Shown here piece by piece: positions 82-3,000 of a stretch of 5,550 bases of DNA. A program made the translations under genes and the position numbers. Every line of letters starts with the position of its first letter. Position 1 is the stretch's first letter. Origin of the DNA: a virus (lineage: Duplodnaviria > Heunggongvirae > Uroviricota > Caudoviricetes); IMG/VR virus record IMGVR_UViG_2534682095_000012; one strand, given 5' to 3'. Under the pieces are notes generated by a model, which made no database searches, had not been told where the DNA came from, and saw nothing but the letters and a program-made list of their open reading frames with translations.

Positions 82-3000
82 TCAGCTGATACTGATACCT
101 GCTGTGGATTTCTTCATCACCACAACCAGCAGATCGCTGATACTGGTTGTTGGTGTCCAGTTATTCGCTCCTGATGAAGATACGGTGAATGTCAGTGTCA
201 GTGTCCCCTGTCCGGCAGGCATATCTATAACTGAGGAAAATACGCCCTGAGCATCCGTCGTGGACTGATTAAAAATCTCCTGACCATTGCGGGTCACTCT
301 TAACCGGCAGGTTGAATACCAGTATGACTGTTGGTTATTACTGTTGAAATTCTCATGCTTACCACCGCGGAATAACACTGGCGGTATCATGACCTGCCGG
401 TCAAATTTCTGATCATCACTGATTCTTACCGTGATGGTGCCACTGGCATAACTGTTCGTGCGGGGGAAAGACTTGCTGACCGTTTTGACAATATCGCCTT
501 CAATCTGATTGGCTGACAGTTTCCCCTTAATCTGACAGTTTTCATTAATCGTGACATTGTTGAGCGTCCCTGAATTTGCATTCACATTACCGCTGATATC
601 CGCATTTTTAGCGGTCAGCTTTCCGTCTGGTGTCAGGGAAAATGCCGGCGGATTTCCACCGCTGGTAATGGTGGGAGCCGTCAGGCGTTTCAGGAACACG
701 TCGTTCATGAATATCTGGTTGCCCTGCGCCACAAACATCGGCGTTTCATTCCCGTTTGCCGGGTCAATAAACGCGATACGGTTAGCGGCAACCAGAAACT
801 GGCTCAGCTTGCCTTCCTCCGTGTCCTCCATGCTGAGGCCAATACCCGCGACATAATGTTTGCCGTCTTTGGTCTGCTCAATTTTGACAGCCCACATGGC
901 ATTCCACTTATCGTTGGCGTCCTTCCACTCTTTCGAAAACTCATCCAGTCTGCTGGCGTTATCCTCCGTCAGCTCGACTTTTTCCAGCAGCTCTTTACCG
1001 AGATGGGATTCGGTTATCTTGCCTTTGAAAAAATCCAGGTAACCTTCCGCATCATCGCTCGCCCGACCGACGGCCTCCACGAATGCCGATTTGCCAACGG
1101 TGTTCACACTGCGAACGTAAAAATAATAATCATGGCCCGGCTTAATATTGATACTGGCGGCTATCCAGTACAGCCCCGTGCCAAGGTAGCGGGCTGTGGT
1201 TTCAACCTGCCTGATATCGGTAATCCGCGTTTCCGAGAACCAGAACTCAAACTGTACCGTCGGATCGTAAACCGCAAGATGCGGCGTGGCGGTTATCTGA
1301 AAATAGCCCGGCGTCAGCTCAATCCGCGACGGCGCTGCCGGTGCGGCAATCCGGAACGATACCGACGCCGGATCGCCCTGCTGTCCCCACGCATTTACCG
1401 CCCGGACTGTCAGCGTGTACCGTCCCAGCGCCAGTTGCGTGAAGCGGTATGTGGTTTCCGTCGTCCGGGCCGTGCTGACCAGCCGCTCACTGCCGTCGTC
1501 CGCTGTTACGGTCAGGCGAAGCAGGAAGCTCACCCCCTTCACCACCTTCGGTGTGTCCCAGCGCGCCAGCACCTGATATTCCCCGCTGTCTGCGGTGACT
1601 TCTGCGGTCAGGTGCTGCACCGCTGGCGGCGTGACACCATTTACCGTGCCGCTCTGGTCGCCGTCAAAGTGCGCCCCGTTATCCACGATGGCCTCTTTTT
1701 CCGGTACATGCTGCACGGCGGTGATGGCATACGTGCCGTCGTCGTTCTCACGGATACTCACGCAGCGGAACAGGCGCTGGCGCAACGTCGGCAGCTTCAG
1801 CCCCCAACGCTGTATCGCAACGCCGTCAGGAACACGGCTCACTTTACCTTCACGCCGTCGGTGACGGACTGACCTCCACGCTGACCGGATCCCTCCGTCA
1901 ACCAGGCTTATCAGCGTGGTCCGGAGATGGCAGCGTGATTTCACGGTCGAGCGTCAGCGTCCGGGTCTGGCTGTTCACCGCCAGCACGCGCCCCGGTGCT
2001 GATACCGGCATAGTCATCATCGCAGATTTCAATGACATCGCCCGGTACATGGCGAAGCCCTTCGCACCCACGCTGAAGTCCACGGTCTGCGTCTCCAGCA
2101 GTTCCGTTTTAATCAGCCACAGCCCGGCGCGGTGTGCCTGCCCCCGGCTGGTACAGCCAAAGGCATCCATCTTCGTGACGTTACGACCGTAACGGGCAAT
2201 GGCCTGCGTTCTTCACAAGCTCTGTCGCCGTCTCCCAGCCGTTTCGGGTCAATCCAGTTCACCTCAACGCATTATGGCGGTCTTCAGGGCGCTGAAGCTG
2301 TAGCGGAACGGCGCCCATCATCCGGCATCACCACATTACTGCGGTTATAGGTCCACACCTTATCGAGGTCGGTCCTGCACGAACGTCAGGTCTGCCCGTT
2401 CCATACCGGCATACAGCGCATCGCCGAGCAGAAATCCTGAGACATCCCACGCCTTCGCTGTGTGGTCAGAGCATTACAGGTGATGCGCGGCTCCGTGCCC
2501 CAAACCTCGGACCACTGGTCGCATCTGGCCGATGACATACAGCGCCATTTTCACATCGCGCACCAGACGTTCCCCATGCCGTAGCGCGGATGGGTCAGCA
2601 TATCCCACAGACACCAGGCCATGTTGTTGCTGTATGCTGGCTTAAACGTTCCGTCCCAGATACCGCTGTATTGCCGCGTCTGCGGGTTATAGTTCGACGG
2701 CACCTGCAGAATGCGCCCGCGAAGATGATAATTACGGCTCACCTGCTGGCTGCCGAACTGCTCCGAGTCCACCTGCACGCCGACCAGTGCCGTGTTCGGG
2801 TAGCACTGTTTCACATCGATGATTTCGGTGTATGACGACCAGAGCGTTTTGTTCTGCAGCTGGTCTGTGGTGCTGTCCGGCGTCATCCTGCGCATCCGGA
2901 TATTAAACGGGCGCGGCGGCAGGTTATCCACCACCACCGAGGCCAGATACTGCGAGGTGGTTTTGCCCTTAATGGTGATGTCTTTTTCCGTCACCCAGCC

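Follow-up and report, generated by a model that had tools for sequence, protein, structure and literature searches.

A lambda-like tail tip gene J carrying the A8/phi330-type receptor-binding module, a probable OmpC-binding allele, on a short Escherichia coli contig

The C-terminal receptor-binding domain (RBD) of the lambda tail tip attachment protein gpJ recognizes the porin LamB (8xck, 8xcj; PMC11101478). According to Ge and Wang (2024, PMC11101478), the RBD trimer puts four bottom loops into the porin, spreads at its base and sends a twist up the fibre, by which the tail is opened. The present work concerns the 3' end of a lambda-type J gene on 5550 bp of DNA from Escherichia coli P0304777.13 (the entire contig AQAJ01000076.1 of the draft assembly GCA_000358245.2), which was analysed at its full length and is called the window below. 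Positions 85–560 of the window are very probably the RBD of this J, namely the OmpC-binding allele of A8 and phi330 carried on a lambda-like body and acquired by homologous recombination.

Several alleles of this domain have been characterized. A8, from the work of Brodel et al. (Nature 2024, PMC11338833), is a chimera in which lambda gpJ has received the C-terminal part of gpJ from a natural phage of E. coli; it directs particles to OmpC in place of LamB. Delivery by A8 was assayed in MG1655 deleted for lamB and ompC and supplied with plasmid-borne OmpC variants, DNA entering only via those; both the MG1655 and the EDL933 OmpC were functional (PMC11338833). OmpC is also the receptor of the Shiga toxin (Stx) 2a phage vB_EcoS_phi330 (phi330): among 54 Keio outer-membrane knockouts the ompC strain alone was not lysed, and complementation rescued lysis (PMC12502783). 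In the AlphaFold3 model of phi330, hairpin E953–S962 is placed inside the OmpC barrel and A1015–P1020 on its rim (PMC12502783). The 1A2-type allele is reported as dependent on OmpC (PMC11338833), and phage 434 (OL657226) is reported to use OmpC as well; the use of this porin is therefore spread over several distinct alleles. The native receptor of phage 21 is reported to be LamB, and this phage evolves to OmpC and OmpF. In an analysis of 1,207 natural J homologues by Maddamsetti et al. (2018, PMC6646904), J residues 960–1132 emerged as a 'specificity region' which recombines independently, its hot spots of indels being 1012, 1048–1049, 1077–1078 and 1107.

The J gene of the window aligns with that of lambda (NC_001416) at 94.2% identity by blastn, and the match ends at window position 524. 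In bins of 90 alignment columns, the DNA identity is mostly 0.92–0.99; it is 0.74 near ~600 and 0.44–0.58 from ~510 to 85, dense mismatches starting at about position 560 (lambda codon ~974). At the protein level, 400 of the 414 residues corresponding to lambda J 560–973 are identical (96.6%), against 71 of 158 (44.9%) over 974–1132. Counted from the C-terminus, the last 146 residues give 62/141 identities (44%), and the preceding 54 residues give 49/54. The boundary is thus a direct observation, and a step from ~96% to ~45% at a single point is far larger than identity would vary along a gene by chance. A first-pass annotation had pointed to 85–540 as a J tail related to that of lambda and yet substantially different, behind some 400 almost identical residues. 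The counts given above agree with both statements, and the coordinates and the quoted C-terminal peptide are correct, since the open reading frame (ORF) 1944..82 (minus strand, 620 amino acids (aa)), which carries the J C-terminus, ends in that sequence. The profile of identity along J, proposed there as a check, has a sharp step, and a uniform profile is excluded.

Within the RBD, the indels relative to lambda are located at three loop sites: about five residues are missing near 1008–1012, six are added near 1048–1049 and one is missing near 1107. These sites coincide with three of the published hot spots (1012, 1048–1049 and 1107). The LamB-binding allele of lambda, understood as its RBD sequence together with the lengths of the LamB-inserting loops, has not been kept in the window (44–45% identity). 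The lambda and window proteins share the Pfam family, the modelled fold, the position and the role of the RBD, as well as a body which is ~97% identical; the differences are those of the RBD sequence, the three loop sites and the receptor.

The comparison with phi330 (PV189401) gives the opposite result. Against lambda, the J body of the window has a DNA identity of 0.94–0.99 and the last ~480 nucleotides (nt) one of 0.52–0.67; against phi330, the body is mostly at 0.5–0.87 and the last ~500 nt at 0.96–1.00. The block common to the window and phi330 starts near position 610 (codon ~957). Such opposite profiles mean that one C-terminal block is present on two different J backbones. The breakpoints, at codons ~957–974, lie in or at the edge of the specificity region 960–1132, so that the region behaves here as the recombining unit described in the literature. 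The mosaic exchange of the receptor-binding domain suggested by the first-pass annotation is supported by this incongruence, which was observed directly.

The module is widespread. Its tip is 100% identical at the protein level in Stx1a-converting phages, 2H10, PhiR30_1, PhiR70_1, Turner, Chlobot and the Salmonella phage SPF_0923, and 98.7% identical in phi330, YYZ-2008 and CP-1639. The whole architecture, with an intact J of 1132 aa, is found in complete genomes, for example in E. coli B1.H1.1, where the part corresponding to window 85–524 is 98–100% identical. Among 5,426 complete E. coli genomes, 1,511 records hold the module at a DNA identity of at least 95%, and in this species it ranks with the most frequent J alleles. 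The J tips of E. coli ATCC 11775, HUSEC2011, A32 and VTB96929v, whose prophages have the same gene arrangement in front of J (discussed below), belong to another allele, which is 1A2-like and 63–66% identical to the tip of the window; this shows further shuffling of tips on similar backbones.

The receptor of the module can be assigned by its identity to proteins studied elsewhere. A PDB sequence search with the last 152 residues gave 152/152 identities to the chains 'A8 gpJ 713' in 9wca and 9wcb, the second of which also holds three OmpC chains, and ~44% identity to lambda gpJ in 8xcj, 8xck and 8iyk. The RBD of phi330 is identical at 144 of 146 positions (98.6%). The identity to the A8/phi330 type extends across the whole RBD, loops included. 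The search of the J tip against characterized proteins, which the first-pass annotation had advised, thus found the same protein, and its suggestion of a receptor other than that of lambda is upheld by A8, solved with OmpC in 9wcb, and by the OmpC-dependent phi330. The OmpC dependence and the OmpC complex themselves come from the literature and from the PDB, for identical or near-identical proteins. The assignment is made because two tested proteins match at 100% and 98.6%, and not because of the divergence from lambda; as an argument for a new receptor that divergence is weak, since the RBD of phage 21 is only 47% identical to that of lambda and nevertheless uses LamB.

In A8 and in the window a lambda-type J body is combined with this C-terminus: the last 152–160 residues are 100% identical, as observed here, and the DNA of the module is essentially the same. 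The A8 DNA in the supplement of PMC11338833 aligns to window 82–741 at 94.8%, in a machine-read text from which letters were dropped. A8 is an engineered fusion onto the J of Ur-lambda, whereas the fusion in the window is natural, its J body differing by ~3% from that of lambda, and J of the window is interrupted upstream of the module. As for phi330, both hairpins predicted to contact OmpC are identical in the window; the J body is ~50–87% identical in DNA, and a short loop reads TSTY in phi330 as against TNSY in the window and A8. The RBD of phage 434 belongs to the same domain family and is 44–45% identical to that of the window.

The domain content of J agrees with these comparisons. Matches above the cut-offs were obtained for its two large fragments with the Pfam families FNIII-A_GpJ, Ig_J, Ig_J_second, Phage_Tail_Tip and Ig_GpJ_C, and a weak match to Phage-tail_3 for a 90-aa fragment from the middle of J; the NCBIfam profile lambda_TipJ was aligned over its positions 519–1163. 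Both the series of domains and the gene order L-K-I-J-lom are those of a lambda-type tail tip protein. The last 125 residues correspond to PF12421 ('Tip attachment protein J, C-terminal receptor binding domain', E=2.2e-36), Ig_GpJ_C covering 459..85. Modelled with AlphaFold2, the last 160 residues are all-beta, with a predicted local distance difference test (pLDDT) value of 78.6, and according to this model the tip has the immunoglobulin (Ig)-like beta-sandwich fold of the gpJ RBD. Its top Foldseek matches are 9wcb (the open state of the A8 gpJ 713 central tail fiber with OmpC G17 from E. coli EDL933; 100% identity, TMq 0.80) and 9wca (the closed state of the same fiber; 100%, TMq 0.81). The lambda central tail fiber was also matched, both in its closed state (8xck; 44%, TMq 0.77) and in its open state with LamB (8xcj; 44%, TMq 0.75).

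The content of guanine and cytosine (GC) was another argument of the first-pass annotation, which had estimated ~38% for 301–360 and ~48% for 101–160, against ~65% upstream. The first two counts are close to the measured values (38.3% and 50.0%, respectively); the third fits only 1301–2200 (63%), since the directly adjoining 541–1300 has 51.7%. For 85–540 as a whole the value is 47.1%, and for the rest of J 57.9%. A tip GC of ~48% is common to the alleles of 434, phi330 and B1.H1.1, lambda being the odd one out with 55.8%, so low GC as a sign of foreign origin proved uninformative; as support for a module swap it is weak, and it is no specific mark of recent import. The minimum at 301–360 is explained by the Asn-rich composition of the first hairpin (325..354).

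J of the window measures 3354 nt, compared with 3399 in lambda, and does not form a single uninterrupted frame of about 1130–1160 codons. It is split into the ORFs 3435..2551 and 1944..82 and the 90-aa piece between them. The N-terminal fragment is deposited as ENE59929.1 ('putative host specificity protein J', E. coli P0304777.13), and this truncated product of 294 aa is recorded on this one contig only. The interruption is caused by a patch (1806–2570) with 23 deletions of 1–7 nt, amounting to 45 nt, and zero insertions. These deletions are not homopolymer slips. The patch also contains 36 private substitutions, compared with 9–18 in the flanks, which are without indels; the intact J of B1.H1.1 lacks such a patch. 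Blending with a phi330-type paralogue is unsupported as its source, just 3 of the 36 private substitutions matching phi330. When a 56-nt piece of the patch was used as an exact pattern, no match appeared in the collections of genome contigs and viral contigs scanned. The patch is probably a poor consensus of a collapsed multi-copy region rather than the mark of a true pseudogene. Just upstream of the junction, five further substitutions (574, 577, 587, 589 and 592, minus strand) give GNVNANS in place of GSVNANS; they are absent from lambda, 434, phi330 and B1.H1.1 and are private to the window among the four J genes compared.

Other origins of the J structure could be considered. The C-terminus might have diverged in place under diversifying selection, with no exchange of a module, in a specificity region where adaptive substitutions and indels are known to be concentrated (PMC6646904). 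This is scarcely credible, given that DNA identity drops to ~50% at one sharp boundary beside sequence of 94–99%, that the block is 96–100% identical in phi330 though the J body of that phage is only ~50–87% identical, and that it recurs with full protein identity in unrelated phage backgrounds. The junction of a lambda body with an A8 tip could also be an assembly chimera, produced when several prophage J copies were collapsed. The window is a whole draft contig with an obviously poor patch, and the tail regions matching it number three per complete E. coli genome (median), which makes it a short repeat contig. Yet the same gene order and junction are found across 100% of the window in complete genomes (95–96% identity) and recur in phage isolates, 2H10 and PhiR30_1 among them; as it occurs in complete genomes with intact J, a chimera is extremely improbable.

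The function of the module in the strain itself is a separate matter. If J of P0304777.13 were a true pseudogene of a decaying prophage, the swapped module would be a functionless relic. The 23 frameshifting or in-frame deletions and the raised density of substitutions in 1806–2570 could be understood in this way; nevertheless, the restriction of all 23 events to deletions within 765 nt between flanks free of indels fits a low-quality consensus better, the 294-aa fragment is confined to a single contig, the neighbouring genes are intact, and a pseudogene is on the whole unlikely. It is also conceivable that LamB has remained the receptor of the module, as it is for phage 21, and that the host range is unchanged despite the divergence. 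Over its last 160 aa, the RBD of phage 21 (OL657228, 6694–7173) is 82% identical to window 85–564, with the same indels and the same hairpins, the ten-residue one and ANNWTP, and its native LamB use gives way to OmpC through J mutations. The ~18% of residues which differ lie mainly in strands and in loops round FPRTN/FPRNG, TTDAQG/ATDVSR and GQGTL/GHGHV; since phage 21 uses LamB despite the shared hairpins, the residues deciding between LamB and OmpC must be among these positions. Retention of LamB is highly improbable for the module in the window, because the identical A8 works via OmpC in lamB-deleted cells and was solved bound to OmpC, and because phi330 (144/146) forms no plaques on an ompC deletion though LamB is present.

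Several points weigh against the assignment of the module to OmpC, and they are of different kinds. All the experiments concern identical or near-identical proteins from elsewhere and not strain P0304777.13, where J is interrupted in the contig, and the module may be non-functional if the deletions are real. Phage 21 indicates that the choice of receptor is labile in this clade. A8 was screened in lamB-deleted recipients (PMC11338833), and additional use of LamB by A8 may formally exist; the full dependence of phi330 on OmpC argues against it. No paper describing 9wca and 9wcb was found in the literature search, and 'A8 gpJ 713' of the PDB would be the A8 chimera of PMC11338833 judging from the shared name and the sequence match.

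The origin and action of the OmpC-type module could therefore be pictured in the following way. The A8/phi330 specificity allele would have replaced the LamB-binding allele on a J body ~97% identical to that of lambda, the replacement occurring by homologous recombination with a crossover in conserved sequence round J codons 957–974, an event which is routine among lambdoid prophages. The Ig-like beta-sandwich domains, trimerized at the end of the central fibre, would insert their bottom loops into a trimeric porin, and for this exact tip sequence the porin would be OmpC. Binding to OmpC would open the RBD trimer, causing rearrangement of the fibre and opening of the tail; the titles of 9wca (closed) and 9wcb (open) imply that the mechanism of lambda operates for A8 with OmpC as well. 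A phage with this J in P0304777.13 would use OmpC, provided that J is intact.

Table 1. Coordinates of the genes and features recognized in the window.
Feature	Coordinates	Strand	Remarks
L, 3' part	5201..5550	minus	ORF list and profile matches
K	4453..5196	minus	ORF list and profile matches
I	3914..4489	minus	ORF list and profile matches
Predicted lipoprotein ORF, 112 aa, low GC, between I and J	3502..3840	minus	Separate from the RBD exchange
J, tail tip attachment gene (lambda gpJ homologue)	82..3435	minus	ORFs, lambda alignment, Pfam, NCBIfam
N-terminal J fragment, 294 aa	2551..3435	minus	283/288 identical to lambda J; premature stop from the first deletion
Degraded J patch, 765 nt	1806..2570	minus	Comparison with lambda and B1.H1.1
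Lambda-like J body (two Ig-like/FNIII domains, helical shaft, beta-prism fibre)	561..1805	minus	~94–100% identical to lambda
Junction zone	524..610	minus	phi330-shared block starts near 610; lambda divergence dense near 560
Receptor-binding (specificity) module, A8/phi330 OmpC type	85..560	minus	Corresponds to lambda J ~974–1132
Asn-rich hairpin, ten residues	325..354	minus	Insertion relative to lambda at hot spot 1048–1049; corresponds to phi330 E953–S962
ANNWTP hairpin	151..168	minus	Near the lambda 1107 indel hot spot; corresponds to phi330 A1015–P1020
Terminator-like hairpin and T run	45..64	minus	After the J stop codon (84..82), before lom
lom, first codons (ATG at 14)	1..14	minus	Ail/Lom family; runs off the contig end

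All genes of the window (Table 1) are located on the minus strand in the order of lambda and E. coli B1.H1.1, an additional ORF of 112 aa being present between I and J beyond the lambda order. The annotation of phage 434 has a terminator at the position corresponding to the hairpin behind J; in the window this hairpin is followed by GAGAGG, which resembles a ribosome-binding site and precedes the ATG of lom.

The product of the additional ORF has a lipobox (LTGC) and a conserved MGGYDVVLD motif and belongs to phrog_914 (function unknown); no match was found for it in Pfam, NCBIfam or PADLOC. The ORF lies within a stretch of 27–45% GC (~3440–3915), and a terminator-like hairpin (3478..3458) comes after it. 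Of 5,426 complete E. coli genomes 337 carry the ORF, in every case beside a tail assembly gene, and it is essentially absent from isolated phages. Klebsiella, Kluyvera, Enterobacter and Jejubacter have homologues with 50–60% identity, which lie at other intergenic points of the tail operon: K and I flank the one in Klebsiella, gpT and the tape measure gene the one in Enterobacter. The predicted fold (pLDDT 84) bears only a generic likeness to small lipoproteins such as Flpp3 and the BamC N-domain. Linkage of this ORF to the A8 allele was considered and rejected: the four E. coli strains with the I-lipoprotein-J arrangement mentioned above carry the ORF with a 1A2-like RBD, and it is also countered by isolated phages which have the A8 allele without the ORF and by the homologues at other tail-operon sites. 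The protein might be an uncharacterized outer-membrane factor of prophages, for example one which masks porins in superinfection exclusion, as compared with Cor and Llp, a role that is quite doubtful at present.

The J module is already known: it has been characterized, its structure with the receptor has been solved, it has been used in engineering, and nothing in it is novel. The allele has already served to redirect lambda particles in the mouse gut. Two lessons follow from the window. Short draft contigs of multi-copy prophage genes may hold consensus errors which resemble pseudogenes, and a receptor can be assigned to an RBD allele only at near-identity to a tested protein, as phage 21 uses LamB at 82% identity. 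The C-terminus of J sets the porin used by a lambda-like phage, and hence the strains that can be reached by such prophages, including the Stx1- and Stx2-converting phages.

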